From NCBI GenBank assembly GCA_037441285.1, contig JBBISL010000005.1, forward strand, positions 28,869 to 92,868: 64,000 nt of DNA, written 5' to 3'. The position numbers and the translations under genes are program-made. The DNA is from a candidate division WOR-3 bacterium (GTDB lineage Bacteria > Hydrothermota > Tepidihabitantia > Tepidihabitantales > Tepidihabitantaceae). The stretch's first letter is position 1; every line of letters begins with the position of its first letter. Below are positions 1 to 56,739 of this stretch, in pieces. The notes below the pieces were generated by a model that worked only from the letters and a program-made list of their open reading frames with translations, was not told the DNA's origin and searched no databases.

Positions 1-1112
1 TTGCGCCTGAGGCACAGGTGGAACGGGTGGTTGGTGATTCTATCAATCCAGCGCTGGTTTGTTCAACCACGGTGGTGGTGCCGTTTAAGGTGACAAGCGA
101 TGTTTACGAGTTAAGGTTCCTGGGTCCGAGCTGGACCGGTTCGAGTGCCAAAGCCCTTTACTCCTATTATGTGGTCAATACGAGCCGGGGTGATTCGCTA
201 ATTGGCGACACCAGTTCGTTCACCTATACAATCGCCACTTCACCAACAACCGCATCAATTCAGGTGCCGGTGTTGAATGGCCAGGCGTTGCAGATGAAGA
301 TGAGGATGAAAATCCCGACCGCACCGTTTGATGGGGTGAGCGTGGTGAGCGGTAGCTATCCGGCAGAGTCGTTGAAGGTTGGAGGAGCACCTTCTCAGGC
401 GTACTGGGCGTTCCGCGGTTCGGACTATCGGATTGAATGGATGAACAATGGCGGTTATTTGACCGCGAAGGTTTACGATGTGACCAACGGTGATATTGAG
501 GTGCCTTTTGCGAAGTTCACAACTACCGGCACCGGTCCGCAGAATGCCAATGGCTGGTGTTTTGTTGACCGGGCGTTCCGCAATCCGACCGACACGCTCA
601 AAGGAACGGTGGCGAGCATCTATATCTGCGGTGGTTATCTCGGGCTCAAGCCGTCCGGAGACTCGTTGCGCGGGCTTTTGAGTTCAATCAATGATGGTGA
701 TGTGTGGAGTGTTGTTGGACATCGCGCCGAAGGTGCGGCGCCCTACTTCAATGTGTTCCGAATCAGCGCGACACCGGGTTATACCGATACGACCACCAAG
801 CAGAAGTTGATGGTGAAGGTTGTACCGAACCCGTACATCGTGTTCAATGTCTGGGAAAAGACATCAGAGCAGCGGGTGATTAAGTTTACCCATCTGCCCG
901 GCACCTGCACGATAAGAATCTTCACAACCGCGGGTGACCTGTTGAAGGTGATTGAGCACAAGGACACGAAGAATCAGCCGCTGGATGAGGGTGGAACCGC
1001 AACCTGGGATTTGATTAACGACTACGGACAGTTGATTGCTCCGGGTGTTTACATCTTTCATGTGGAATCGCCGGTGGGTGAGTTTACCGGTAAGTTCATG
1101 GTCATCCATTAA
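1..1112 (+). CDS. 5'-truncated secreted protein ending in a T9SS (Por) C-terminal sorting domain
   Basis: The frame is open to the window edge: the track start at 18 is a GTG and there is no in-frame stop upstream. The last ~90 aa (KVVPNPYIVFNV...GVYIFHVESPVGEFTGKFMVIH) follow the T9SS CTD pattern that recurs on many proteins here. Confidence 0.55.
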   Translation, partial: APEAQVERVVGDSINPALVCSTTVVVPFKVTSDVYELRFLGPSWTGSSAKALYSYYVVNTSRGDSLIGDTSSFTYTIATSPTTASIQVPVLNGQALQMKMRMKIPTAPFDGVSVVSGSYPAESLKVGGAPSQAYWAFRGSDYRIEWMNNGGYLTAKVYDVTNGDIEVPFAKFTTTGTGPQNANGWCFVDRAFRNPTDTLKGTVASIYICGGYLGLKPSGDSLRGLLSSINDGDVWSVVGHRAEGAAPYFNVFRISATPGYTDTTTKQKLMVKVVPNPYIVFNVWEKTSEQRVIKFTHLPGTCTIRIFTTAGDLLKVIEHKDTKNQPLDEGGTATWDLINDYGQLIAPGVYIFHVESPVGEFTGKFMVIH

Positions 1113-1126
1113 GAGGGAGGTGAAGG

Positions 1127-2194
1127 ATGAGACCAGTTGATTACAGAGGTGATAAAGTCGGAAAATGGGGCAGGGCGATTTTAATCGCCCTTGTGCTATT
1201 TTCAATGGGCTGGGCGGCTTTTTCCAAGGTAGCGACGACCGGTGCCCAGTTTTTGAAAATCAGTGTTGGTCGGGCATCGGGCATGGGCGACGCCTTTACC
1301 GCCCTAGCCGACGACGCTTCAGCGAGTTATTTTAACCCGGCGGGAATCGCTTACATCAAACGGCAGGCGCAGTTTAATCACGCCAACTGGTTTGCCGATA
1401 TCAACCACGACTATCTGACGGTGGTGCTGCCGGTGACGAACTTCGGAACCGTGGCAATCTCGGCAACCGCCTTGACGATGGGTTCGATTGAGCAGACAAC
1501 AGTGGATAACCCGCAGACACCGCTGCGCGAGGATGAGGGCACCGGTTTGACAATCGGCGCCTCGGATTTGGCACTCGGTCTGTCTTATGCCCGAATCATC
1601 ACCGACAAACTGTCGTTTGGTTTGACGGTTAAGGGTATCAATCAGACGATATGGGACCTGTCGGCTTCGGCGCTGGGGGTTGATGTCGGGTTGTTCTACA
1701 ACACCGGGTTCAAGTCGTTGCGGCTCGGTGCGGCGGTTACCAATTACGGTAGCCAGTTGACCTATGCTGGTCCGCATCTTGACTACAACTTCTACTGGTC
1801 CGATTCCGGTCCCAGTCAGTTGCAGGGTTCTTACAAAACAACACCGGTGCCCCTGCCGACAACATTCCGGTTCGGGGTGGCGATGGATGTTTTGAAGAAC
1901 GATAACAACCGGCTGACCGCAGCCATTGACCTGGTGCACCCTTCTGATATCAACGAGACGGTCAATTTCGGACTGGAGTACGGACTCGCGGATATGCTGT
2001 TTCTGCGTGCCGGCTACATCTTCAACACCGACCAGCAGTATATGAAGAAGCTGGGTGATTTCACCGGATTGTGTGCTGGTGCCGGTGTGAAGGGCAAGGT
2101 GGTTGAAGGGCTGGAACTGGGGCTTGACTACTCGTTCCGGTACTACAGTTATCTGAAGCCGACCCATCGTTTGATGTTGACGGTTGGCTTCTGA
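1127..2194 (+). CDS. PorV/PorQ-family-like outer membrane beta-barrel (T9SS-associated)
   Basis: RBS AGGGAGG lies upstream of the ATG. N-terminal conserved block GAQFLKISVGRASGMGDAFTALADDASASYFNPAGI matches the PorV/PorQ N-terminal signature. The rest has alternating beta-strand character. It lies between two T9SS cargo genes. Confidence 0.5.
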   Translation: MRPVDYRGDKVGKWGRAILIALVLFSMGWAAFSKVATTGAQFLKISVGRASGMGDAFTALADDASASYFNPAGIAYIKRQAQFNHANWFADINHDYLTVVLPVTNFGTVAISATALTMGSIEQTTVDNPQTPLREDEGTGLTIGASDLALGLSYARIITDKLSFGLTVKGINQTIWDLSASALGVDVGLFYNTGFKSLRLGAAVTNYGSQLTYAGPHLDYNFYWSDSGPSQLQGSYKTTPVPLPTTFRFGVAMDVLKNDNNRLTAAIDLVHPSDINETVNFGLEYGLADMLFLRAGYIFNTDQQYMKKLGDFTGLCAGAGVKGKVVEGLELGLDYSFRYYSYLKPTHRLMLTVGF

Positions 2195-2203
2195 CCACAG
2201 GGA

Positions 2204-4336
2204 ATGCAGGTTAAACCAGTGGGGGGATGGTTAAATGCCATCCCCCTGCTGATTTGTTTTTCGGTGTTGTCCGCGGCACAATGGACCTTGGGGGTTTATA
2301 TGGCGGCGGACAACGGAATGAGCGAGCAAGCCGCGGTTGATATCGGCGAGATGTTGCGGATTGGTTCGACCGAAGAGGTTAACATCGTTGTTCAGGTGGA
2401 CAACGCGGCTCGGGATACCAATCCCAGCTGCCGGCGCTATCTGGTCCGTAAGGACACCCTAATGCTGCTTGGTGACCTCGGGGAGCGAGATATGGCAGAC
2501 ACCGCAACCCTTGCCGAGTTTATCGGATTTCTGGGTCAGCGGTATCCGGCGCGAAACTACTTTTTAATTATCTGGGACCACGGTGATGGCTGGCGCAAGG
2601 GTTATGGTCCGCAGCGGGCGGTGGTGATTGATGAGTCGGATGGGCATATGATGGGCGTTGCCGGTGGTGAGTTAAAACGGGCAATCCGTTCTGGTAAGAG
2701 GAAACTGGGGAAGGATATTACCGTTATCGGATTTGATGCCTGTCTGATGGGTACGGTTGAGGTGGCAACAGAGCTTTTGGGTTCGTGCGACTATCTTTTG
2801 GCATCAGAGGCGGTTGTTCCCTGGGAGGGGTTTCCTTACGATGCGTTTTTGAGTCGGTTGGTGGCATATCCGACCGCAACCCCAGGGGAGTTTTTGCCCG
2901 AGATGTGTGCCGATTATGTTGCTTCGTACCCGGGGGAGGATGTGTGTCTGTCCGCGGTTGATATGAAGCAGCTGGCGCGGGTTCTGGCGAGCGCCAAACG
3001 AGCGGTGGGTGATAGCCTTGCGCCCAATAGTTTAGGGTTTGAACTGGCACGCCAGGGGGTGCAGACATTTTCCGGAAATGCGATAAGTCCACCCTGTTAT
3101 CAGGATGAGCAGGTTGATTTTATCCATCTCTGGCAACTGGCACCCGGAACCGGTTTGAGCGGTTTGCGCGCGGCGCTGAACCCGCTAATTGTTGCCAATG
3201 CGGTGAGCGGAAATTATAGCAATGCCCGGGGAATTTCGGTATGGTTCCCGGCTGGTTATCTGAGATTTAAGCAAAAAATCGATGAGTATCGGGCACTGGA
3301 CTTTGCCGATTCGGTGCCCTGGCTTCATTTCCTTAACAATTACTATTGCCGGGACGATGTCAAGCCGACGCGCCCGGGAATCGTCCATCATCAAACGGGT
3401 AAGCGGGGTGATGTGCGGCTCTGGTGGAAGCCGGCGTTTGACCTGAGTCCGGTGGTATATGAACTTTATCAGGCGGCAGAGCCCGAAAATGTTTTTTTGG
3501 ATAGGGCGGACAGTCTTGGTAACTGGGAAAGTTCGGGCTGGACCGTTTCCAGCCGGTACTTCCGCTCACCGGGAACCGCATTCTTTTCCGGCTCAGCGTC
3601 TAACCTTGACAACAGGCTTACACTACAACAACCGCTTAGCCTTGAGGCGGGCGGGTTGCTTTCTTTTTATGCGTTTTACTGGACCGAAGAGGCCGAGGAC
3701 AGCATGGGTGATATCAGCCGCGATGTGTGTTATGTTGAGTGGTCCAGGGATAAAAATAACTGGTATTCACTGGATTCGCTCTATGGCCAGGCGGACACCT
3801 GGCAGGAGTACCGTTATCTTCTGCCCGCGGGCGAGGTTTACCTGCGGTTTTATTACCAAACCGATGAGGGGGAGAATCGGTTAGGGGTGTTTATTGATGA
3901 CATCAGAGTTGAACGGTTTGACCTTTTGCGCCGGGTGACAGTAACACCGGATACTACCGCCTATCTGTTTAACCTCGCCCGGGACACAGCCGGTTACAAC
4001 TTCTTTGTTGTTGCGGTTGACTCTTTCAAGAACCGTTCAATGGTAAGCCAGCGCTACCCGGTGCAAATTTCGGACTGGGCAGAACCGTACACAATGCCGG
4101 CGCCGTTTTCTGGTGACTGTAAACTGGTGCTGGACTTTCCCGAGGAGGAAACGCCCGATGTTTTAATCTACACCCTGTCGGGAACAGTGGTGAAAAAATT
4201 TGCCCGGGTTTCAAGTAGGATAATCGAATGGGATGGCAAAAATGAGGAGCGCCAGGACCTGGCGGCCGGCGTTTATCTTGTTGTTGTTCAGGGTAAAAGG
4301 TTTAAGAAAATAGGGAAAATTGCCCGGGTAGAGTGA
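2204..4336 (+). CDS. Clostripain-like cysteine peptidase (family C11) with T9SS C-terminal sorting domain
   Basis: IIWDHGDGW (catalytic His-Gly) and IGFDACLMG (catalytic Cys) occur in C11 order and spacing. There is an N-terminal signal peptide. The C-terminus ...GVYLVVVQGKRFKKIGKIARVE is a T9SS CTD. Confidence 0.7.
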   Translation: MQVKPVGGWLNAIPLLICFSVLSAAQWTLGVYMAADNGMSEQAAVDIGEMLRIGSTEEVNIVVQVDNAARDTNPSCRRYLVRKDTLMLLGDLGERDMADTATLAEFIGFLGQRYPARNYFLIIWDHGDGWRKGYGPQRAVVIDESDGHMMGVAGGELKRAIRSGKRKLGKDITVIGFDACLMGTVEVATELLGSCDYLLASEAVVPWEGFPYDAFLSRLVAYPTATPGEFLPEMCADYVASYPGEDVCLSAVDMKQLARVLASAKRAVGDSLAPNSLGFELARQGVQTFSGNAISPPCYQDEQVDFIHLWQLAPGTGLSGLRAALNPLIVANAVSGNYSNARGISVWFPAGYLRFKQKIDEYRALDFADSVPWLHFLNNYYCRDDVKPTRPGIVHHQTGKRGDVRLWWKPAFDLSPVVYELYQAAEPENVFLDRADSLGNWESSGWTVSSRYFRSPGTAFFSGSASNLDNRLTLQQPLSLEAGGLLSFYAFYWTEEAEDSMGDISRDVCYVEWSRDKNNWYSLDSLYGQADTWQEYRYLLPAGEVYLRFYYQTDEGENRLGVFIDDIRVERFDLLRRVTVTPDTTAYLFNLARDTAGYNFFVVAVDSFKNRSMVSQRYPVQISDWAEPYTMPAPFSGDCKLVLDFPEEETPDVLIYTLSGTVVKKFARVSSRIIEWDGKNEERQDLAAGVYLVVVQGKRFKKIGKIARVE

Positions 4337-4338
4337 TT

Positions 4339-7095
4339 TTACTCCATAACCACAACCTTTTTTCGCACCGTCCCGGAGGCGGATTTCACCTCAATAAAGT
4401 AAACACCGTTCCCGAGTCCGTTCGTTGTAAACGTAATAGAGTGAACACCAGCCATTACCCTTTTTCTGGTGAGCAGGTTTTTGACCAATCGACCATCAAT
4501 TGAGTAAATGTCGGCGGTGATTTCGTCTTCTATTGGGGTTGCAAAATGTAATACACCCTGGGTTTTCAGGGGGTTGGGTTTAATGGCAATTTCCCGGGGC
4601 AAAGTGGCACCGGCTTTTTCCTGGGCACCAATGGGTTCAAGATAAAAGGCACCAAGCGCCTTGTCGGTTGCGAGCGGAGGGTAGTAGCCCCAAAAAGTCA
4701 AAAGAAACTGGGTTTCTGTTTCCCCTTGTGGCCCGCGACAGATATTAGAGTTAATCCGCCACTGTTCGTTAGAGATTAAGCGCAAACCCTGAGTGTCAAT
4801 GACCACGCCGGCGGTTGTTACCCGCGCACCGTAGATGGCACTGACACCTGATTCCCGATAGTCTTCCCAAACCACCAGATATTTACCAGCGCCATAGGCA
4901 AGGCGCGGATAGGTTTTACTGTCATTGGTGAGCGAAATCGGTCGAGGCAAGGGGTCAAGTACCATGCCATCCTCTCTTACCATTTTGCCGTAGATATCAA
5001 ATATTCCGTTCGCATCGGCACGCTGGTAAACAACAAAGTAGTTGGTACCATCAAAGGCAACATCGGGAAACATTTTTTCATATCCACTTGCAGTGTCAAT
5101 CGGTATTCCATCGGGGTCGATTAGTTCGCCGGCGCGCGTTACCCTTGCTCCATAGATGTGGTCATAACTCCCGTCGTACTGCATGCGCGTAATAAAGTAA
5201 TGGTCGGTTCCTGCGACAACTCTCGGGTAACCCACTCCCAACTCAGTTCGGGCAATTTCAATGTTGTCCAGGACGCGGCCTTCCGGAGTGACGCGCGCCG
5301 CATAAACTGAATACTGTGCGTTACTATTGTCGTAAGCCATCCAGGAAATAAGATAGTACGGGTCGTTAAATGTCACCGCCGGGTAGAAGTCGTCAATGCC
5401 GCTGTTCTGTGAAACCTGGATTCCGGTTGAATCTAAGAGTACCCCCTGGCGCGTGACCCGGGCAGCAAAGATGTCAGCTTCCCCATTGCGAAAGTCGGTC
5501 CACACGACAAGGAAGTTCTCGCCGTCAAAGTCCGCCACCGGTTTTTCAGATGTATTGCCGCCCGAGGAGATGAAAATGGCGCCTGAGTCAAGAATCTGAC
5601 CCGTGGGTGTCAATCTCGTCCCGTAAATGGCGCCCTCCGGTTCCCGAAAGTCCTCCCACACCACGAGGTAGTTTGACCCGTCAAAGGCGGCTTGCGGATA
5701 GGTCTGAGGGATGCTTCTTAGTCCCCGGGATGTCAATATGCCGTCCGGGTCTAAGATTGTGCCATCGGTGGCGACGCGGGTGGTCAGGATATCGGAGTCC
5801 ATTTCACCATAAATTGAGTAAGATACGAAATAGCGGTTTTGGCCGAAGGTCGTTGCGGGAGGCGAAAATGAGAAGTTGGAGTTAACCATAAAACCGCCCG
5901 TGTCAATCACCACACCTTCCCGGGTAATGCGCATTCCATAAACGCCATCAGCCCAGAGATAGGTGATAAAATGGTTTGTTCCGTCCGATGTAATGTCAGG
6001 AAAGGAGATGTCCATTTCGCCCAGCGGGATACCACTGGAGTCGAGCGGGTTTGCGGAGGTTGATATCCGGGAACCAAAAAGACGGTATGATTCAAGGGCT
6101 TCGCGGTCATCCATCCATACAGCAAAGTAGTTGGCACCATCAAATATCAATCGGGGGAGGAGCTGACTGTTGACTTCCCGAATGATTGGTTTGCCATTGG
6201 TGTCGATTACCACACCGCCGGGCCGGACGCGAGACCCATAAATATTAAAGTACTCATTACCTTCGTCTCGACCATCAGACCAGAGAATAAGGTAATTATT
6301 ACCATCGTAGGCGATACTGCGAAAGACAAACTGGTCATAGGAGGTGGTGCAGATGGGAATGCCGGATGGTTCTAACACAACACCGGCGGGAGTAACCCGG
6401 GCACCATAGACATCGTAGGAAGAATCGCCGTCCCGTTCATCGCTCCATGCGATAAAGTAGTTGGTACCGTCAAAGGCGATTGATGGGTAAAGATGGTCAC
6501 CACCCGAAGAAATCGGTATACCTTCGGGGTCAAGAACCACGCCGGTTGAGGAAACCCGGGCACCGTAAATGTCAAACAGCGCATCGTTGTCGCGGTCATC
6601 CATCCATACGACAAGGTAGTTATTGCCATCAAAGGCGATTGATGGCAATACCCGGTTTCCTTCGCCGGTGGCGATGGTTATCGGGAATGTATCAAGGAGT
6701 GTACCTTCTGCCGTGATGCGGGCGCCGCAAATTTGGGCATATTGATTGCGCCAATCGGTCCAGACGACAAAAAACTGCGTGCCATTGAAGGCAATTGCGG
6801 GGGAATCCTGGTCGCCTGGTGCCGCTCCAAGAAAAGAGGTAGTATCAAAGGCGAACTCTTCAAGAAATGAAGTGTTCAACCCGGTAATGCCGATTTGGGA
6901 GCGGCGGTCTCTAAAATCAAAGAGGTTTCTACGAGCATTTTTATTGTTTTGTTTTAGGTTGCTAAACATGAAGAATTGCTGTTCGTGCCGGCGATTTTGC
7001 GGTCGCGGCATTTGTCGCTTTACCATGAAAAAATTTGTTTGGGGTAAGGTAAATTGACTCAGGCAAATCAGGAGATTTGTGATTAAAAAATGCAT
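4339..7095 (-). CDS. 918-aa secreted protein made of ~13 tandem ~50-aa repeats, with T9SS C-terminal sorting domain
   Basis: AGGAGG sits 5 nt upstream of the ATG at 7095. Repeat consensus is P-x-IAFDG-x-NY-LVVW-x-D-x-R-(5-7)-DIYGARVT-x-x-G-x-VLD-x-x-GIPI. C-terminus is GVYFIEVKSASGTVRKKVVVME. Confidence 0.7.
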   Translation of the reverse strand: MHFLITNLLICLSQFTLPQTNFFMVKRQMPRPQNRRHEQQFFMFSNLKQNNKNARRNLFDFRDRRSQIGITGLNTSFLEEFAFDTTSFLGAAPGDQDSPAIAFNGTQFFVVWTDWRNQYAQICGARITAEGTLLDTFPITIATGEGNRVLPSIAFDGNNYLVVWMDDRDNDALFDIYGARVSSTGVVLDPEGIPISSGGDHLYPSIAFDGTNYFIAWSDERDGDSSYDVYGARVTPAGVVLEPSGIPICTTSYDQFVFRSIAYDGNNYLILWSDGRDEGNEYFNIYGSRVRPGGVVIDTNGKPIIREVNSQLLPRLIFDGANYFAVWMDDREALESYRLFGSRISTSANPLDSSGIPLGEMDISFPDITSDGTNHFITYLWADGVYGMRITREGVVIDTGGFMVNSNFSFSPPATTFGQNRYFVSYSIYGEMDSDILTTRVATDGTILDPDGILTSRGLRSIPQTYPQAAFDGSNYLVVWEDFREPEGAIYGTRLTPTGQILDSGAIFISSGGNTSEKPVADFDGENFLVVWTDFRNGEADIFAARVTRQGVLLDSTGIQVSQNSGIDDFYPAVTFNDPYYLISWMAYDNSNAQYSVYAARVTPEGRVLDNIEIARTELGVGYPRVVAGTDHYFITRMQYDGSYDHIYGARVTRAGELIDPDGIPIDTASGYEKMFPDVAFDGTNYFVVYQRADANGIFDIYGKMVREDGMVLDPLPRPISLTNDSKTYPRLAYGAGKYLVVWEDYRESGVSAIYGARVTTAGVVIDTQGLRLISNEQWRINSNICRGPQGETETQFLLTFWGYYPPLATDKALGAFYLEPIGAQEKAGATLPREIAIKPNPLKTQGVLHFATPIEDEITADIYSIDGRLVKNLLTRKRVMAGVHSITFTTNGLGNGVYFIEVKSASGTVRKKVVVME

Positions 7096-7334
7096 TTTAC
7101 CTCCTTCTTGTAGGATATTTTAGCAAAAGCGTTTTATCTGTCAATAAAGTTGCCAACAGGTTCTGGTTTCAGGTTTAGAAAGGGCGTCTTGAAAAGAGGC
7201 AGGGCATTTTGTCGGGCGGCATGCGGCGCAATTTTAGGGATTAGAAAAACTTGACAAAAGCGGGAAATCTGGCAAAATAAATAAAGGAGGGAATCGGGGT
7301 TTTTATGGTATTAGAATTAAGAAAGGAGGTTAGG

Positions 7335-8711
7335 ATGCGTTGTTTGTTTGTATTAGCCGGGGTAAGCATACTTTTGTTTGCCGGTACCCAAACATCCCAG
7401 CCTTCGGCTGAGGTTGTAACCAAAGACGGTGTGCCGATGTACATCAATTATCAGGGTTACCTTACCGATGCCAATGGTACTCCCATCAACAACACGAGTC
7501 CGGGTCTGGCGATGGCGTTTGAGATTTACGATGCCGAAAGCGGTGGTCTGCGGCTTTTTGGTCCCCAGTTGCAAACCGTGCCGGTGCGTCAGGGTGTGTT
7601 CAATGTTAAATTACTGCTGAGCGAAGGCGACACGACCATTTTCCGAGCCGGGGAGCGGCGCTGGTTGCAGTTGACAATCAGCGGACAGGTTATGACGCCC
7701 CGCACTGAGATTACTTCTATGGCATATGGGATTCATTCGGCAAAGGCGGACAACGCCGATATGCTTGACAATAAACACCACACCGATTTTATCTGGAATG
7801 GTACCACGATGCAGGCGCCTGCTAATTTTTACATCAGCGGTGCCGGTATAAGCAACGGGATTTTTGCTGCGTACGGAGTGGGAGTTAGCGGCAATCATAC
7901 GCCGACGATTTATGGCAGGAGTGAAAAGGACAGCAGTTTCGGCGTTTATGGAACTAACATTAGCACTCGAGGCACCGGCGTTGCTGGTTGCGGCAATTAC
8001 GACACCCTGTTTTATTTGACCGCGGGTTCGGGCGGTACATTTTCCGCCCGGCGGTTTGGTCTTTTTGCCTATGCGCACGACACCAATGGTACCGGTATTG
8101 CAACTATGGGTAACAGAATCAGTGATACCGTTTATACTCTTGCCCAGGGCTGTGGTGGTGCGTTCAACGGTACCACGGTCGGTGTTTACGGTCTGGCACG
8201 GAATTTGAACGGTAATCGCGCCGGCGGATATTTCCGGACATTTGGTACGACCGATTCGACCTATGCCTATGTTGCCTATCGCTACAACGGGCAGAACTAC
8301 AAAATCCTGGGTGATGGCCAGGTCTCAACGATAATGGCAACCCGGGAAGGGAAGAGGATTCTGTTTGCACCCGAGGCACCTCAGCCCTTCTTTGAGGATT
8401 TTGGCGAAGCCCGGCTTGTCAATGGTCATTGCCGGGTGAACCTGGACCCGCTGTTTTTGGACTGTGTTGCCGTGGATGCAAGTGCACCGTTGCGGGTTTT
8501 TGTGACCCTAACCGACGACTGCAATGGTGTATATGTCAAAACTGACCAGACCGGATTTGATGTGTACGAGTTAAAAGGCGGGCGTTCCAATGCCGGGTTT
8601 TACTGGCGGGTGATTGCGACAAGGAAGGACGGTAAGGATGTCCGGTTACCGGTAGCCCCACCGCCGGCTTCCGAGATTGGTATTCCAATAAGAATGCAGC
8701 CCAGCCGGTAA
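7335..8711 (+). CDS. Secreted Gly/Thr-rich hypothetical protein
   Basis: AAGGAGG lies 5 nt upstream of the ATG at 7335, followed by signal peptide MRCLFVLAGVSILLFAG. The track start at 7305 is in frame but has a poor RBS. Short degenerate xVYGxxxxxxGTGV motifs recur. No family recognised. Confidence 0.5.
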   Translation: MRCLFVLAGVSILLFAGTQTSQPSAEVVTKDGVPMYINYQGYLTDANGTPINNTSPGLAMAFEIYDAESGGLRLFGPQLQTVPVRQGVFNVKLLLSEGDTTIFRAGERRWLQLTISGQVMTPRTEITSMAYGIHSAKADNADMLDNKHHTDFIWNGTTMQAPANFYISGAGISNGIFAAYGVGVSGNHTPTIYGRSEKDSSFGVYGTNISTRGTGVAGCGNYDTLFYLTAGSGGTFSARRFGLFAYAHDTNGTGIATMGNRISDTVYTLAQGCGGAFNGTTVGVYGLARNLNGNRAGGYFRTFGTTDSTYAYVAYRYNGQNYKILGDGQVSTIMATREGKRILFAPEAPQPFFEDFGEARLVNGHCRVNLDPLFLDCVAVDASAPLRVFVTLTDDCNGVYVKTDQTGFDVYELKGGRSNAGFYWRVIATRKDGKDVRLPVAPPPASEIGIPIRMQPSR

Positions 8712-30696: not shown

Positions 30697-33600
30697 GTGA
30701 AAAAAGTTCTGGTTTTACTCTTGCTGGGGTTTTTGCTCGCCGGGGCAGAAGAGGGCGCGCGCTATTTGATTGTTGCCCCGGATTCGTTCGTTTCTGCCGC
30801 TTTTCCCCTTGTCCACTGGAAGACCGCAAAAGGGATGCTCGCAAAGGTTGTGCCGACGAGCGAAACCGGAACCGACACCGCCTCAATTCGCAGTTACATT
30901 CGCTATGCCTGGAACAACTGGGACATTCCACCCGAATATATTTTGCTTCTGGGTGGTCCGACTCATATCCCGAGCCTCAACTACAACAACGACAACTACT
31001 ACGGCGATATGACCGGCAATTACTTGATGGAAATCCCGGTGGGAAGATTTCCGGCACAGACGGTGCGCGACTGCAGCACATTTGTTGCCAAGGTCCTGGC
31101 GTATGAAAATCCACCGGCGGACATTGATACGCTCTGGTTTTACAAAGGAACAACCGTGGTTCGGGAAGATGTACCCCCGGACTCTTTTTATCAAAAGGAT
31201 TCGCGGATTTTACGTCAGTACTGGGTGGCGCGGGGTTTTGCCCTGGCAGAGAGTTTGTGCGACCTTTATGGTGACTCGAGTCGGGAGGTGAATGCGGCAG
31301 CGCACGACGGCAGGCTTTTCATCACCTATCGGGGTTCTGGTGTCAGCACCTGGTACTCGCCTTTCAATGCGGTTGATGCCACTGGCTGGGGAAATGGTGC
31401 GAAAATGCCGGTGGTGGTGAGCGGTACCTGTGCGACGATAACTCTGGCACCGGGTGAGTCGATGTATGGTGACCGGTTTGTGCGTGCCGGTTCACCAGGG
31501 GCGCTGGGCGGTGCAATTGCGTTTTTTGGAACAACCCGTGCGGGAAACCACCTTTCCCGGTACCGGAGCGCCTGTTTTCGGGGGTTTTTCCATTCGCTTT
31601 ATGAAGAGGGTGAGTACCGATTGGGAAAGGCGGCGTTGCGCGGTAAGTTCTGGATTGATTCAATTTATGGAGATTCGGTGCGCTATCTTGAATGGAACCT
31701 GTTGGGCGACCCGGAACTCAATGTCTGGACCGGACCGGTAAAAACCTTACAGGTGGCGCACGATTCGGTTGTCCTGCGAAAGCCCCAGAACTTTGTCGTG
31801 ACAGTGCGGGCGGGTGGTGTACCGGTGCCGAATGCGGTGGTCTGTGTCTCAATGGATTCAACCGTTTATGAGTACACGAGCACAAACAGCCAGGGTCAGG
31901 CGATTTTTGAAATCAATCCGGTCAACACCGGCTCACTTCAGATTGTGGTTACGGGTAAAGACCTAAGACCCTATATCGGGAGTTGCGAGGTTATCGCAAA
32001 GGATGTTGCGTGCACAGCGATTCTGGCGCCGGCTGGAGTGGTAGATTCGGGGATGGGTGTGACACCGGTGGTGAAACTTTTCAACTACGGCAGCAGGATG
32101 GAGAGTTATCCGGTGCGGCTCAGAATCGGCACAAATTACTGTCAGGTGGAAACGGTCTATTTTCATCAGCCCACCACCGAAAACGAGTTGATTTTCCCGC
32201 GCTGGTATGCCCGGGAAAGGGGCAGTCTGGTGGTCAGTTGTTCAACCGAACTGATGAACGATGTTGTGCCGGAAAATGACCGGGATACCGGTGCGGTTTT
32301 TGTCCGGGTGCGCGATGTCGCAGTGTCAAGGATTGTGGTGCCGGTGGACCGGTATCCAGCAGGAAGTGTGATTACGCCGGTGGTCGCAGCCCAGAACCCG
32401 GGCAATGTGAATGCGACATATCAGATGTGGTTGACGATTACCAACGCTCAGGGGCAACCGGTTTACACCGCTCAACAGAATGTTGTGAACCAGCCCCCAG
32501 GCGATTCGGAACTGTTTGTTACATTTGCGCCCTGTTCCTTGAACACCGGTGGCAAATGGGCGGTGCGGTGCAGCGTCTATTATCCATTTGACCAGGTGCC
32601 GGCAAACAACATCAAAACCGGTGAGTTCTGGGTGACGCCGGTATGGCAGGCAGGCTGGCACGAGGTGGTGGCGATGCCGGCGGCACCTTCAGGCGCAGCG
32701 GTCAAAGATGGGGGCTGGATTGCGGCAGATGAGAATTCGGGTGTGATTTATGCGGGTAAAGGCAACAAAACAGGCGACTTTTATGCCTATGAGCCGTTTA
32801 CCGACACCTGGCGTATCCTATCGCCGATTTTGCCGGGAAGAGAGGAACGGTTGCCGAAAAAAGGTGCGCGGGGTGTTGCCGATGGTGCGGGAAGGGTGTA
32901 TTTAGTTAAAGGGAATAATAGCCGGGGTTTCTGGTGCTACCACGCAACCGAAGACCGGTGGGAACAGTTATCTGATATTCCGCTGGGTAATAGCGGCAAA
33001 GCGGTGAAGGGCGGGGGCGATATGTTGTATCTATTGAAAAACGACACCGGCTATCTGTACCTGTTAAAAGGTTATTACAGCGATTTCCTGTGTTACAACA
33101 CCGCAACCGGTGAGTGGCGTGTGCTCCCGGATGCGCCGACGGGAAAGTGGAAAGAGGGTTCCTGGCTGGTTTACGACGGCGCTAATAACATCTATGCCCA
33201 TCGGGCAAACAGCGAAGAGTTGTGGGTGTTTGAGATCGAGAGCAACCGCTGGAGCACAACACCCCTGCCGGGCATTCCGCGGCAGAGCACGCGGACCGGT
33301 AAGAGTAAAAAGTCCAAGGATGGAAGTGCGGCGGCGTATTACGACGGTTGTATTTATGCCCTGAAAGGTGGCAATACCGCGGAGTTCTGGTGCTATCGGA
33401 CCACGGAAGCCCGCTGGGAGGAACTTGACACCATTCCCCAGCAGGGTTCTACCGGTAAAAAGAAACGGGTGAAAGCCGGCGGTGATATCGCCCATTTTGG
33501 CGGCGGCGTGTTTTTTGCCCTGAAGGGCAACAAGACCCGGGAACTGTGGCGCTATGTACCAGCAATGGGTTTGGCTTCAGGACCCACAATGCCGCGCTCC

Positions 33601-33891
33601 GGAGTTAGGGGCGAAGCGAGTGACGAAAAGGGGGTTAAGTCAATGCCGACGGTGTCAAGTGTGGCGATGCTCGAGAGATATCGGACCGAACTGGCAAGCG
33701 AGAGCGGTGCAAAAGGCGTCCGGGTCTGGATAGTGGACATTACGGGTCGGGTGGTGGCAGAGATGCATTCAATAAATTCCGGTAAGGCAGAAAAGAGCCC
33801 GATTGGCAGTTTAGCACCCGGTGTTTACTTCTTGCAACTGGAAACCGATGCCGGTTATCGCGGGGTAAAGAAGATAACGGTGGTGCGGTGA
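30697..33891 (+). CDS. Gingipain-like (peptidase C25 family) N-domain + Ig-like linkers + Kelch-like beta-propeller + T9SS C-terminal sorting domain
   Basis: GTG start after an AAGGAGG RBS, then a signal peptide. The N-terminal ~350 aa have C25-like layout (YRGSGVSTW ... VVVSGTCATITL). The C-terminal half is paralogous to 8738-10552. It ends GVYFLQLETDAGYRGVKKITVVR. Confidence 0.55.
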   Translation: MKKVLVLLLLGFLLAGAEEGARYLIVAPDSFVSAAFPLVHWKTAKGMLAKVVPTSETGTDTASIRSYIRYAWNNWDIPPEYILLLGGPTHIPSLNYNNDNYYGDMTGNYLMEIPVGRFPAQTVRDCSTFVAKVLAYENPPADIDTLWFYKGTTVVREDVPPDSFYQKDSRILRQYWVARGFALAESLCDLYGDSSREVNAAAHDGRLFITYRGSGVSTWYSPFNAVDATGWGNGAKMPVVVSGTCATITLAPGESMYGDRFVRAGSPGALGGAIAFFGTTRAGNHLSRYRSACFRGFFHSLYEEGEYRLGKAALRGKFWIDSIYGDSVRYLEWNLLGDPELNVWTGPVKTLQVAHDSVVLRKPQNFVVTVRAGGVPVPNAVVCVSMDSTVYEYTSTNSQGQAIFEINPVNTGSLQIVVTGKDLRPYIGSCEVIAKDVACTAILAPAGVVDSGMGVTPVVKLFNYGSRMESYPVRLRIGTNYCQVETVYFHQPTTENELIFPRWYARERGSLVVSCSTELMNDVVPENDRDTGAVFVRVRDVAVSRIVVPVDRYPAGSVITPVVAAQNPGNVNATYQMWLTITNAQGQPVYTAQQNVVNQPPGDSELFVTFAPCSLNTGGKWAVRCSVYYPFDQVPANNIKTGEFWVTPVWQAGWHEVVAMPAAPSGAAVKDGGWIAADENSGVIYAGKGNKTGDFYAYEPFTDTWRILSPILPGREERLPKKGARGVADGAGRVYLVKGNNSRGFWCYHATEDRWEQLSDIPLGNSGKAVKGGGDMLYLLKNDTGYLYLLKGYYSDFLCYNTATGEWRVLPDAPTGKWKEGSWLVYDGANNIYAHRANSEELWVFEIESNRWSTTPLPGIPRQSTRTGKSKKSKDGSAAAYYDGCIYALKGGNTAEFWCYRTTEARWEELDTIPQQGSTGKKKRVKAGGDIAHFGGGVFFALKGNKTRELWRYVPAMGLASGPTMPRSGVRGEASDEKGVKSMPTVSSVAMLERYRTELASESGAKGVRVWIVDITGRVVAEMHSINSGKAEKSPIGSLAPGVYFLQLETDAGYRGVKKITVVR

Positions 33892-48936: not shown

Positions 48937-50415
48937 TTACTCTGCTCGACCGGTGTTTTTGATGTCACCACCAAACATGGGCCAGGAGGAGTCGGCCGGA
49001 CCACCGTAGCCAACAACACACCAGGCACGGGTGCCATCGCCGATGTAGATGTAGCCGGCATCGTCAATCTTCGGGGCGGAAATAAAATCGCCGGGTGTGC
49101 CAATGCCCAGTCCCGCAGCCCAGCGCCTTGAGCCGTCACTGTTGACCGCATAGAGTGAATCGCGGTCACCTTGCTGGTCAATCAGTCCAACACAAAGGAA
49201 GTAGACAACGCCAGTATTGCTAACCGCCGGAGTTGAGGCGTCACCAGTTAGCGGTGGAATGAACTGCCAGTTGATGTTGCCGTTCTGTGGGGAAACGGCG
49301 AGCAGTGTGCCACTCAGGGTGATGTAGATTGTGCCATCACCACCGATTACCGGAGCCGAAAGTTCGCCCACAAAGCGCACCGCCCAGTTTTCATTTCCAT
49401 CGGCAATGTTCACCGAGGCAAGCCAGCCATCCTCGTCGGTTACATAGAGAACAGAACTTCGGGTGTCGATTGCGGGCGGTGCCGCTATCGCCTGTCGCAT
49501 ACCGTAACGCCATTTTATCTGACCATCTGAAGGGCTAATGGCATAGAGGGTATCGTCCTGAGAAACAAACACCGTGCCGTCCGGACCGATTACCGGTGAA
49601 TGTTCTCCGCCACCGGCATAGAAAACCCATTTCCGGGCGCCATCGTTTGGGTCAATGGCAAAAACCGAGTCGTTTTCGGTCTGGATAAAGATTGTGCCAT
49701 CGGACCCAAGAGCGGGCAGGGCGGTTATGCCGGAGCGGAAGGTTACCTTCCATTTTTTCTGGCCGGAGGGAGTGACGGCGTAAAGGTTACCTTCTTCGGT
49801 GCCGAAGTAAATTGTGCCGTCCGGGCTGATTGTTGCACCGATGGAAAGTTCGTCTTCATCTTCCGGTATGAACTCCCAGCGCCGGTTGCCGTTGGCGTTA
49901 CGGCACATCAGTGCCGGAATGTCCGCGGCAGGAATGTAGACATTGCCTTCGGGTCCGATACTGAAGATGTGGTTGGAGAAGTCGGCAGAGTCTTCGGGTG
50001 CTTCCGGGTCAGTATAGGTAAATCGCCAGCGGACTTCGCCTTCACCCGGGCTGATTTCGATAATCAGCGGCTCAGACCAACCGGAAACCCGGCCTTTGGA
50101 GTTTTTTGCCCGGGCTTTAATTTCCATCGAGCCCGCGGTAGTATAGGTGTGGGTATCGGCATAGGCGATACCACCATCAACCCAGCCGGACCATTGAGAT
50201 TGCGAGCCATCGCCCCAATCGAACTGGTAGGCAACCTGACTACCTGATGGGTCGGTGGTGCGAGTGGAGCAGGTGAAGACAACATTTTTGTATCCGAGAA
50301 GCGGGCCACTGGGTTTTTCCGGAACAAGCGGTGGTTTCGGACAGCCCGAAAAGATGAGCGCCGCGAGGAACACAATCCCCGCGCCGAGCCATGTCGGCGT
50401 AATCTTAAACTTCAT
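48937..50415 (-). CDS. Lipoprotein with PKD-like domain and PQQ/BamB-like beta-propeller
   Basis: Lipobox IFSGC. AAGGAGG RBS. PKD-like FDWGDGSQS segment, then repeated GTIYFGT...LYAV / GTIFIQT...VFAI PQQ-type blades. Confidence 0.7.
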   Translation of the reverse strand: MKFKITPTWLGAGIVFLAALIFSGCPKPPLVPEKPSGPLLGYKNVVFTCSTRTTDPSGSQVAYQFDWGDGSQSQWSGWVDGGIAYADTHTYTTAGSMEIKARAKNSKGRVSGWSEPLIIEISPGEGEVRWRFTYTDPEAPEDSADFSNHIFSIGPEGNVYIPAADIPALMCRNANGNRRWEFIPEDEDELSIGATISPDGTIYFGTEEGNLYAVTPSGQKKWKVTFRSGITALPALGSDGTIFIQTENDSVFAIDPNDGARKWVFYAGGGEHSPVIGPDGTVFVSQDDTLYAISPSDGQIKWRYGMRQAIAAPPAIDTRSSVLYVTDEDGWLASVNIADGNENWAVRFVGELSAPVIGGDGTIYITLSGTLLAVSPQNGNINWQFIPPLTGDASTPAVSNTGVVYFLCVGLIDQQGDRDSLYAVNSDGSRRWAAGLGIGTPGDFISAPKIDDAGYIYIGDGTRAWCVVGYGGPADSSWPMFGGDIKNTGRAE

Positions 50416-55229: not shown

Positions 55230-56606
55230 CTATTTCAGGACGAGAACCTTACGGATGATGCTCTGGTTGTCTTTTGTAATGCGGAGGAAATAGCTGCCGG
55301 GTGTCACGGTCGTGGTGTGCCAGGCATTTTCTTCAGGTCTGGCAATAACCCTGCCCGAGGCATCAACAACGCTCACCGCGATATCGCTCAACCCGGATAT
55401 TTTCACCGTCTCTCCCCGGCGCACAACTGAAGGGTAGATATTAACTCTTTGTAATTCAGCCGATTGGCTTTCGCCAAGACCAAGTGAAACATACTCACGG
55501 ATGACGGTCCACTGGGTTGAGTCTCGATACCGGTCGATGAGTTCTGCTTTTCCGTCGGAGTTGATGTCATACAGGGTCATTTCGCCCCCAACCCACTCAG
55601 TCTGCCAGAACTGCTCATACCGGTCGTTGCCGGTGCAGCGGAATAATCTCACACCCGCACCATCTGTAACCGCAAACTCGGGTCTGCCATCGCCATCCAC
55701 ATCGCCAACGCCGATTGAATTGCCGGGGTATGCCGGATAAAAATAGGTGACCCAGACGAGTTCAAAGGAGTCGTTGCAAGGGGACTCCAGGACACCGAGG
55801 ATGCCCCTGTCATCCGAATCTATCCCGAACACGATTGCCTCGTTTCTGCCATCTCTGTCCATATCCGGCGCTGCACCAAGAGCATGGGGGCGAGCACTGC
55901 TGGGGAGAAGAAATCTGTATTTTACAACCATTGAGTCGTCAGCCACAGCCTCATAAATGTATCCATAGATGTCTTCTAAAACCAGGAGTTCAGGAATGCC
56001 ATCCCGGTCAAGGTCAGGAGTCTGTATGAAGTCCGTTAACCAAGAATGAGATTTACGGCACACAAGGTTATATCTGTCCGGGCCGGTGCACTCATAGACC
56101 TTTATCTCACGAGTAATAATGGATTCTGTATAAAAGGTGACCTCGCGTGCTCCATCCGCATCTAAGTCAGTGATTCTCGCGGGATCAAGCCCACCACAAC
56201 AGGCATATGCTTGCCACACTATTACAGAGGGCAGGGACATTGAATCGGCGCTTTCAAGAACGCTAAGAAAGCCCGTTATTGAGGTTGTGTCTGCTTCTGT
56301 TAACAGGTCGGTCTTACCGTCCTGGTCAACATCCCCAATGTCCCAGACGGGTGTTTCGATATAGCCAAGTGGAAAGGTGTCAAACTGCGAGCCACCAGTG
56401 TATTCCAAGATGTAGTTTGTCCACCCACCTTCTTTGAGGAGCATCATATAGATTTCCTGTTTACCATCGTGGTCGGCATCACCGCACACATACCGGTCCC
56501 AGGCGAAACCTTGCACCCGGGCAATTTCCCGCATCTCAAAAGAGTCAGGGGGGGTGGCAAGCAAGGATAACAGGAACAGAAGCCCCATACGAAATAATAA
56601 TAACAT
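55230..56606 (-). CDS. FG-GAP/VCBS-repeat beta-propeller protein with T9SS C-terminal sorting domain
   Basis: Seven D-x-D-x-DG-xxE calcium-loop repeats (DADHDGKQE, DVDQDGKTD, DLDADGARE, DLDRDGIPE, DMDRDGRNE, DVDGDGRPE, DINSDGKAE). Start at the internal Met (MLLLFRMGLLFLLSLLA signal peptide, AGGGG RBS). C-terminus GSYFLRITKDNQSIIRKVLVLK. Confidence 0.7.
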   Translation of the reverse strand: MLLLFRMGLLFLLSLLATPPDSFEMREIARVQGFAWDRYVCGDADHDGKQEIYMMLLKEGGWTNYILEYTGGSQFDTFPLGYIETPVWDIGDVDQDGKTDLLTEADTTSITGFLSVLESADSMSLPSVIVWQAYACCGGLDPARITDLDADGAREVTFYTESIITREIKVYECTGPDRYNLVCRKSHSWLTDFIQTPDLDRDGIPELLVLEDIYGYIYEAVADDSMVVKYRFLLPSSARPHALGAAPDMDRDGRNEAIVFGIDSDDRGILGVLESPCNDSFELVWVTYFYPAYPGNSIGVGDVDGDGRPEFAVTDGAGVRLFRCTGNDRYEQFWQTEWVGGEMTLYDINSDGKAELIDRYRDSTQWTVIREYVSLGLGESQSAELQRVNIYPSVVRRGETVKISGLSDIAVSVVDASGRVIARPEENAWHTTTVTPGSYFLRITKDNQSIIRKVLVLK

Positions 56607-56739
56607 ATCCCCTACCGCTGTCAAGGTTTGAAGGAAGCCAGACCCGTCTGCGGGTGTCGCAGGCAAAGGAGGTGAAGAGAAGAACATAAAAGGCAGGAAA
56701 AGGTCTGAGGCTCGACAAAAACAATGAAAGGAGTAAAAA

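Follow-up and report, generated by a model that had tools for sequence, protein, structure and literature searches.

A WOR-3 protein with a type IX secretion tail and a 13-unit repeat array predicted to fold as two seven-bladed beta-propellers

The window analysed here, a stretch of 64,000 nucleotides (nt) of contig JBBISL010000005.1 (positions 28,869 to 92,868) from a candidate division WOR-3 bacterium, contains on its minus strand an open reading frame (ORF) of 918 amino acids (aa) in which a hydrophobic N-terminus and a basic linker are followed by 13 tandem repeat units and by a type IX secretion system (T9SS) sorting domain. In the initial annotation, which was made from the letters alone, the product had been described as a T9SS cargo protein with about 13 units of an unrecognised module of ca. 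50 aa, over a range (4728..6813, aa 95-789) that spans the whole array. According to the structure models described below, the 13 units are recognisable blades that, together with a degenerate 14th blade, make up two tandem seven-bladed beta-propellers, and we regard this fold and the order of the parts, double propeller and then T9SS tail, as well supported. The features of the gene, of its product and of the rest of the window are collected in Table 1.

The 13 units were phased by anchoring on the motif [IVL][YF]G.R[VI] and aligning, which placed their starts at aa 94, 148, 201, 257, 311, 357, 409, 462, 514, 569, 619, 673 and 726 and the end of the array at aa 778, with a period of 46-56 aa. 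A leave-one-out test, in which a hidden Markov model (HMM) built from the 12 other units scored the omitted one and 200 shuffles of that unit served as control, gave 36.7-85.8 bits for all 13 units and no more than 9.2 bits for the best shuffle, in support of the number of units given originally. The period is ca. 53 aa and not the ca. 50 aa given at first, since the spacing of units in 258 fetched members of the family has a median of 53 aa (interquartile range 52-54). The consensus of the units in this protein, xxxxPxxAFDGxNYFVVWxDxRxxxxxIYGARVTxxGxVLDxxGIxI, agrees with the motif first noted, and a fuller blade consensus can be written as Q-x-x-P-x-V-A-F-D-G-T-N-Y-L-V-V-W-x-D-x-R-x(5)-D-I-Y-G-A-R-V-x(3)-G-x-V-L-D-P-x-G-I-x-I-S-T-A. 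When the whole window was translated in six frames, the repeat was seen in this array and nowhere else. Applied to the DNA, Tandem Repeats Finder reported nothing, and the copies of the unit are 60-84% identical to each other; the array is therefore old and diverged and not an assembly artefact, as had been proposed.

Orthologs of the same length were found at 92% and 86% identity, the latter in a metagenome-assembled genome of candidate division WOR-3. Both a Shine-Dalgarno sequence and a promoter-like site speak for the annotated start codon, which is credible. Since such sites are not more numerous in the region than in shuffled sequences, the promoter-like site counts only by its position just upstream of the ATG.

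Table 1. Positions in the window of the propeller gene, the parts of its product and other features
Feature	Position (nt)	Strand	Basis
Whole ORF, 918 aa and stop codon	4339..7095	-	ORF call
Promoter-like site TTGACA-16 nt-TAAAAT, extended TG	7117..7144	-	11/12 matches
Shine-Dalgarno AAGGAGG	7100..7106	-	4 nt upstream of ATG at 7093-7095, read off sequence
aa 1-14, hydrophobic helix MHFLITNLLICLSQ, putative signal for Sec or anchor	7054..7095	-	helix aa 2-13 in model
aa 15-75, basic low-complexity linker, disordered	6871..7053	-	pLDDT <50
aa 76-93, cap motif (E80, F81, D84, T85) and extra strand aa 87-91	6817..6870	-	alignment and model
Repeat unit 1, aa 94-147	6655..6816	-	59.7 bits leave-one-out
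Repeat unit 2, aa 148-200	6496..6654	-	85.8 bits leave-one-out
Repeat unit 3, aa 201-256	6328..6495	-	76.4 bits leave-one-out
Repeat unit 4, aa 257-310	6166..6327	-	56.2 bits leave-one-out
Repeat unit 5, aa 311-356	6028..6165	-	36.7 bits leave-one-out
Repeat unit 6, aa 357-408, shortened B-C loop	5872..6027	-	36.7 bits leave-one-out
Repeat unit 7, aa 409-461, predicted last blade of propeller 1	5713..5871	-	38.7 bits leave-one-out
Repeat unit 8, aa 462-513	5557..5712	-	65.2 bits leave-one-out
Repeat unit 9, aa 514-568	5392..5556	-	63.5 bits leave-one-out
Repeat unit 10, aa 569-618	5242..5391	-	47.5 bits leave-one-out
Repeat unit 11, aa 619-672	5080..5241	-	44.1 bits leave-one-out
Repeat unit 12, aa 673-725	4921..5079	-	45.6 bits leave-one-out
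Repeat unit 13, aa 726-778	4762..4920	-	65.3 bits leave-one-out
Predicted 14th blade, aa 779-822, completing propeller 2	4630..4761	-	high-pLDDT strands 780-790, 794-805, 810-821
aa 823-836, flexible linker	4588..4629	-	pLDDT <50 at aa 825-833
aa 837-918, T9SS type-A C-terminal sorting domain, beta-sandwich	4342..4587	-	PF18962, TIGR04183
3' part of gene running off window start, CTD-like end	18-1112	+	
PorV/PorQ-family outer-membrane protein	1127-2194	+	205.6 bits vs cut-off 90
Clostripain-type C11 cysteine peptidase, MAM-like region, weak T9SS CTD	2204-4336	+	
468-aa ORF divergent from propeller gene	7305-8711	+	own promoter-like site 7251-7278
1064-aa protein, Peptidase_C25, Kelch motifs, CTD	30697-33891	+	159.5 bits (Peptidase_C25)
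Propeller/cargo protein, PKD and PQQ/BamB-like	48937-50415	-	
Propeller/cargo protein, FG-GAP	55230-56687	-	
Propeller/cargo protein, 1280 aa	56740-60582	+	
Propeller/cargo protein, YncE-like propeller with FlgD_ig	60676-63099	+	
pLDDT, predicted local distance difference test; CTD, C-terminal domain.

A full-length AlphaFold2 model, which had been proposed as a check in the initial annotation and was built here on an alignment of 78 sequences, is all-beta and made of propeller blades, with a pLDDT of 88 and a predicted template modelling score (pTM) of 0.75. In this model each unit provides four antiparallel strands, which correspond to the segments PxxAFDG, NYLVVWxD, DIYGARV and GIxI. The region aa 70-465 modelled alone gave a compact domain with a pLDDT of 94.5 and a pTM of 0.92. 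A Foldseek search with the whole chain returned generic multi-propeller proteins with low template modelling (TM) scores, the top ones including the YWTD-propeller receptors LRP2, ROS1 and Sevenless; the scores are low because the orientation between the domains differs, and one propeller was therefore modelled alone. With the full-length query in the structural search the ranking was unchanged, and ca. 320-360 residues were aligned, that is, one propeller per match.

The 14th blade gave no match to the HMM of the unit and was seen only in the structure model; in the family its consensus motif is PALAxGxGxQxLxTYxG...RIWGKFYP. At the other end of the array, the residues E80, F81, D84 and T85 of the cap motif recur in 83-97% of the 78 members of the family that were compared. 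The model shows two extra strands, one at aa 87-91 ahead of unit 1 and the other at aa 457-461, in the tail of unit 7 and ahead of unit 8, and their order suggests that they probably close propellers 1 and 2, respectively, as velcro strands, each providing the last blade of its ring with an outer strand. Across the family, divergence is greatest in units 7 and 13, and the identity between units is slightly higher at an offset of seven, which fits a design of seven plus seven blades.

Two folds, a large beta-propeller or a beta-solenoid, had been put forward initially, and AlphaFold2 is sometimes over-confident on repeat proteins, so that a model could in principle mislead here. Nevertheless, the two separate predictions agree with each other and the 53-aa unit has four antiparallel strands, so that we consider it extremely improbable that the repeats form a solenoid or any other non-propeller fold; the solenoid was rejected on the concordant propeller models. 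Of the original proposal the propeller stands, as two rings of seven blades and not as a single large one.

The C-terminal tail passes the cut-offs of both Pfam (Por_Secre_tail, PF18962, 34.6 bits, cut-off 27) and NCBIfam (TIGR04183, 36.4 bits, cut-off 23) over aa 840-916, in agreement with the earlier assignment of the protein to the T9SS cargo, and in a comparison of the family profile with the PDB the T9SS C-terminal domains 8glk_D and 8glj_D were matched. T9SS machinery is represented in the same genome by a PorV/PorQ-family gene, and several other CTD-bearing ORFs lie in the window. Concerning the N-terminus, its hydrophobic stretch is conserved in the orthologs, and classical signal peptides are found directly ahead of the propeller in other family members (L039, L021); on the other hand, the window protein lacks, ahead of this stretch, the basic residues that classical signal peptides have in their n-region, which weighs against export. 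We infer from the sequence that the protein would be exported by Sec and that aa 1-14 may function as the signal. Within the family the N-terminus of the orthogroup of the window protein is atypical, consisting of a helix without basic residues and then a basic disordered stretch of ca. 60 aa. In the route that we propose, Sec would carry the protein over the inner membrane, the C-terminal domain would direct it to the T9SS translocon and to a PorV-type shuttle, whose gene adjoins, and the tail would then be cut off and the protein released or fixed to the cell surface. Removal of the tail followed by release or attachment is established for cargo with type-A CTDs in Bacteroidota, and it is by analogy with these that the last step is proposed.

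A Pfam-A scan recognised no repeat family in the protein even at E<=10 (Kelch, NHL, PQQ, FG-GAP, BNR, PD40, WD40, Ldl_recept_b), and the NCBIfam scores for repeat or propeller models were far below the cut-offs (TIGR04275, beta_prop_Msarc, 31.1 bits with a cut-off of 85; PorE, 24 bits with a cut-off of 600). A sequence search of the PDB with the whole protein returned nothing for the repeats and the full-length family profile found T9SS C-terminal domains only, so that overall the sequence and profile searches of the PDB gave these domains and a short hairpin of the lectin CV39L, which is discussed below. No existing repeat family with the same consensus was thus matched with confidence in Pfam, NCBIfam or the PDB, and the module remains, as first described, unrecognised. 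Kelch, PQQ, FG-GAP and YncE-type propellers were recognised by Pfam in other ORFs of the window, and the failure is therefore specific to this repeat. A full-text search of the literature for the motif strings found no papers, and one for WOR-3 together with T9SS found nothing specific. The curated propeller repeats (Kelch, NHL, PQQ, FG-GAP, BNR, PD40/TolB, WD40, YWTD and TIGR04275) have four-stranded blades in common with the window protein, but their blades are of ca. 40-47 aa, whereas those of its family are of 53 aa and have a different and far more strongly conserved consensus. Neither the fold nor the secretion route is new; the sequence family is large, sharply defined and apparently uncurated, and its fixed number of blades is unusual.

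Membership in DUF3659 (PF12396) was rejected as a repeat artefact, since the protein reaches 24.1 bits, with a cut-off of 24.8, and has 0 individually significant stretches. In homologs the summed score for this family does top the cut-off, usually by way of many short sub-significant matches to a GxVxDxxG hairpin. The precomputed Pfam labels of homologs (DUF3659, Peptidase_M23_N, Vein_beta-barrel, PurS, Ago_N_3, Glyco_hydro_43) are likewise spurious, resulting mostly from the addition of short matches, and sums of sub-significant matches that pass Pfam cut-offs were observed in P0026, P0046, P0076, P0086 and P0118. Such additive matches appear to have given some family members the misleading source names 'FGAM synthase PurS component' and 'Zn-ribbon protein'.

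A search with the profile of the unit, which covered 1.84 billion cluster representatives at 50% identity, matched 23,978 of them at E<=0.001, 13,897 at E<=1e-10 and 4,691 at E<=1e-30. Nearly all of the 150 best matches have 13 matched stretches, and exactly 13 units were counted in 228 of the 258 fetched proteins; moreover, a member of 2303 aa holds two whole arrays, ca. 530 aa apart. Given the fixed number of units and the presence of two whole arrays in that member, the array of 13 plus one blades appears to behave as one indivisible, fixed and mobile extracellular module. At least 573 loci encode relatives among species-representative genomes, and several genomes have three or more copies of the family. 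Matches along the full length, including the tail, were found in WOR-3, Edwardsbacteria, Stahlbacteria, TA06, Zixibacteria and Gemmatimonadota, and matches to the module only in Myxococcota (among them Archangium minus and Hyalangium versicolor, which are in culture), Actinomycetes, Thermoleophilia, Limnocylindrales and Spirochaetales; members without the CTD are found also in Chloroflexota. In the phyla in which the tail is missing the module is fused to bacterial immunoglobulin-like (Ig), cadherin-like and PKD domains, to PD40 propellers or to Big_13 repeats. As read from the translations, some members have Cys-rich repeats and a hydrophobic C-terminal tail that resembles a Myxococcus-type sorting tag, and some have lipoprotein-like or classical signal peptides. 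Every one of these architectures is extracellular.

Several relatives (L029, L050, L071, L066, L041 and L021) carry ahead of the 13-unit module a conserved N-terminal domain of ca. 250-280 aa with the motif PFDxxxVxxxVHFAFRP...GGHSTY. This domain, which is absent from the window protein, occurs in Myxococcota, Thermoleophilia, Spirochaetales and Gemmatimonadota, and a Pfam scan of L029, L050 and L066 recognised nothing in it. Another family member, which includes a T9SS CTD (L024), lies on a contig of 4.1 kb (JBHIBK010000185.1) binned as a Thermoplasmata archaeon, and is most likely a binning error rather than an archaeal T9SS cargo.

The conservation of the positions of the unit was counted over 3,363 units. 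The conserved positions are Q1 (96%), P4 (96%), W17 (97%), D19 (83%), R21 (83%), D27 (76%), G30 (86%), R32 (94%), G37 (97%) and D41 (92%), and units inside one protein are ca. 55% identical to each other. All of the 249 columns that are conserved at 80% or more within the repeat units fall in the periodic consensus, and no blade-specific conserved residue was found among the conserved columns inside the array; conservation therefore bears no mark of a single active site. At the variable positions of the unit (2-3, 20 and 22-26) the residues Y, S, N, D and G predominate; by the standard topology of propellers, these positions would lie in the D-A and B-C loops of the top face.

These data can be accommodated by a double propeller that would serve, once exported, as a rigid platform for multivalent binding, in the manner of a lectin or an adhesin. 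The residues conserved from blade to blade (Q, P, W, D, R, D, R, G, D) would form and staple the blades, and the specificity for the ligand would be set by the variable loops of the top face, in which Tyr, Ser, Asn, Asp and Gly abound. We favour binding over catalysis because conservation is periodic, because the variable loops have this composition, because the module is fused to adhesion-type domains and because the one link found in sequence is to a multivalent lectin. The last was found with unit profiles in the PDB, which matched CV39L with E 2.2e-6 when built from 13 units and with E 3.7e-9 when built from 97 diverse units; the match is restricted to the hairpin DGxxYLVxWQDxxG, at unit positions 8-23, and recurs in each of the seven blades of CV39L with a period of ca. 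51 aa. We consider it fairly probable that the whole explanation, a secreted or surface-displayed rigid multivalent platform resembling lectins or adhesins, is right, and for the binding role of the double propeller taken by itself the chances seem about even. Several observations weigh against such a role. The best structural neighbour, CylK (PDB 7RON), is an enzyme, and several other neighbours are lyases or glycosidases. The likeness to lectins in sequence amounts to a hairpin of ca. 15 residues in CV39L only, with PLL and BP39L unmatched, and each unit conserves a single Trp (W17). The polar residues of the periodic consensus may have a purely structural role or may bind metal, and substitutions between close orthologs are only slightly more frequent in the D-A loops and in strand A, with small numbers, so that they are not clearly concentrated in the proposed binding loops.

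It could also be the case that the propellers are catalytic, the protein being a secreted enzyme akin to CylK or BrtB or to the propeller lyases and glycosidases (virginiamycin B lyase, PL25, PL42, GH43-like); an active site would then be situated on the top face of one ring or of both. In known propeller enzymes the active sites are asymmetric, and this alternative is difficult to reconcile with a conservation that is wholly periodic and with the fusion of the module to adhesion-type domains. CylK, which carries out a Friedel-Crafts alkylation in cylindrocyclophane biosynthesis, speaks for this alternative in that its C-terminal propeller has, as here, seven blades of ca. 50 aa with long loops; the CylK propeller has been described as unusual in that these loops fold over the outside and in that Ca2+ sites bridge the blades (PMC8916777). 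The active site of CylK lies at the interface with an N-terminal Ca2+-binding beta-roll and needs Arg105 from this beta-roll (PMC8916777); this partner, which contributes half of the site, is absent from the window protein, in which aa 1-75 are a helix and a disordered linker and no RTX or hemolysin-type Pfam match was found. CylK-type enzymes have been described as carrying NHL repeats (PMC7081238), but NHL was not matched in the window protein at E<=10, and searches with the single sequence, the units or the family profile did not match CylK, there being no detectable similarity in sequence between the two. Furthermore, CylK is a biosynthetic enzyme of a natural-product gene cluster and has a beta-roll, whereas in the window protein two propellers stand in tandem and a T9SS tail follows them. 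Taken together, a catalytic function seems unlikely to us. Blade-bridging Ca2+ sites like those of CylK would be compatible with the conserved periodic D, N and Q.

The CV39L match raises the question of whether the family might be a very divergent branch of the true PLL-family lectins (PLL, 5C9O; CV39L, 6GXS; BP39L, 6GXR; PHL), which bind fucose or O-methylated sugars between blades. Like the window protein, these lectins have blades that are highly similar within a chain, and the family-wide unit profile, matching all seven blades of CV39L, speaks for the relationship. However, only ca. 15 of the 53 unit positions are shared, and with CV39L alone, the DIYGARV...GxVLD part of the unit being without counterpart; the full-length family profile matches no lectin, and identity in the structural alignments is 7-13%. 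The sugar sites of the PLL family have two Trp per fucose site and another for galactose, whose pocket between blades is made of Trp, Arg, Glu and Gln (PMC5584973), and this two-Trp fucose pocket is, judged by sequence, not conserved in the units. In addition, PLL-family lectins are single propellers of ca. 360 aa, whereas the window protein is a fused pair with a secretion tail. Membership in that family is accordingly a distinctly unlikely explanation. A component of the T9SS attachment complex, and not a cargo, would be expected if the protein were like PorZ of Porphyromonas gingivalis, which is built of two seven-bladed propellers with a C-terminal domain behind them and acts together with PorV, PorU and PorQ (PMC5121618, PMC8545088). 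The architecture is the same, and the PorV/PorQ-family gene and the CTD-bearing cysteine peptidase adjoin, in a synteny that is kept in relatives. The likeness is, however, one of architecture only: the NCBIfam PorZ model (NF052228) gave no match even at E<=10, no PorZ entry was among the top structural matches, and the gene, which runs convergently to the PorV-like operon, is no part of it. Besides, there are several paralogs per genome, and the family is present without a CTD in Myxococcota, Actinomycetes and Chloroflexota, none of which is known to have a T9SS. An identity with PorZ was rejected on the unmatched model, the multiple copies and the phyla without T9SS, and a PorZ-like role seems very improbable.

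Returning to the binding platform, a broader and more speculative proposal can be made, namely that the module of 13 plus one blades is a new class of extracellular multivalent receptor. Its rigid double ring would offer up to 14 equivalent sites, and it would be one of the main means of surface recognition, of glycans or of other cells, in uncultured phyla of the Fibrobacterota-Chlorobiota-Bacteroidota (FCB) group such as WOR-3, would be shared with Myxococcota and Actinomycetes, and would be linked in evolution both to the PLL lectins and to the propeller of CylK, perhaps down to the metal sites that staple the blades. We regard this proposal as doubtful in its entirety. If true, it would place a new receptor class at the centre of the surface biology of uncultured FCB phyla and make the family more interesting, as would the demonstration of an evolutionary link between PLL lectins and the CylK propeller. 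Irrespective of function, the repeat is carried by ca. 24,000 cluster representatives at 50% identity and is undescribed in the libraries and literature searched, and its members are currently labelled as hypothetical, are named after their T9SS tail, or bear misleading names from summed small matches. A curated model would annotate thousands of proteins at once and would delimit a group that probably ranks as a major class of proteins, surface-bound or secreted, in WOR-3 and in uncultured phyla related to it. The presence of exactly 13 recognisable blades with ca. 55% identity between them also makes the family an unusual and clean case for studying how tandem propellers stay uniform.

The propeller gene is convergent with an operon-like run of genes on the plus strand, which comprises the truncated gene at the start of the window, the PorV/PorQ-family gene and the gene of the C11 cysteine peptidase. 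The gene order is conserved around the ortholog of 86% identity, and the PorV/PorQ gene, the C11 peptidase gene and the propeller gene are syntenic in L001-L003, together with an unannotated protein of 922-960 aa and a gene resembling those of TonB-dependent receptors. On the other side, the 468-aa ORF divergent from the propeller gene had no Pfam match and, in NCBIfam, only a weak one, of 29 bits with a cut-off of 60, to the N-terminus of the mosaic adhesive trimer fibre proteins of Bdellovibrio; beyond it lie a CTD cargo in which Kelch-like motifs occur and then a hydroxylamine reductase. Farther along the window, the 1064-aa protein with a Peptidase_C25 domain is gingipain- or PorU-like and thereby a candidate for a T9SS sortase or a secreted protease. 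The further CTD cargo in the window fits an organism that exports many proteins through the T9SS. In the 1280-aa protein only the C-terminal FlgD_ig/CTD region was recognised, ca. 1,200 aa being unannotated. Finally, the guanine-cytosine (GC) skew is positive in every 2-kb bin of the window, the cumulative skew climbs steadily and the long ORFs are mostly on the plus strand, all of which would fit a position of the whole window inside a single replichore.

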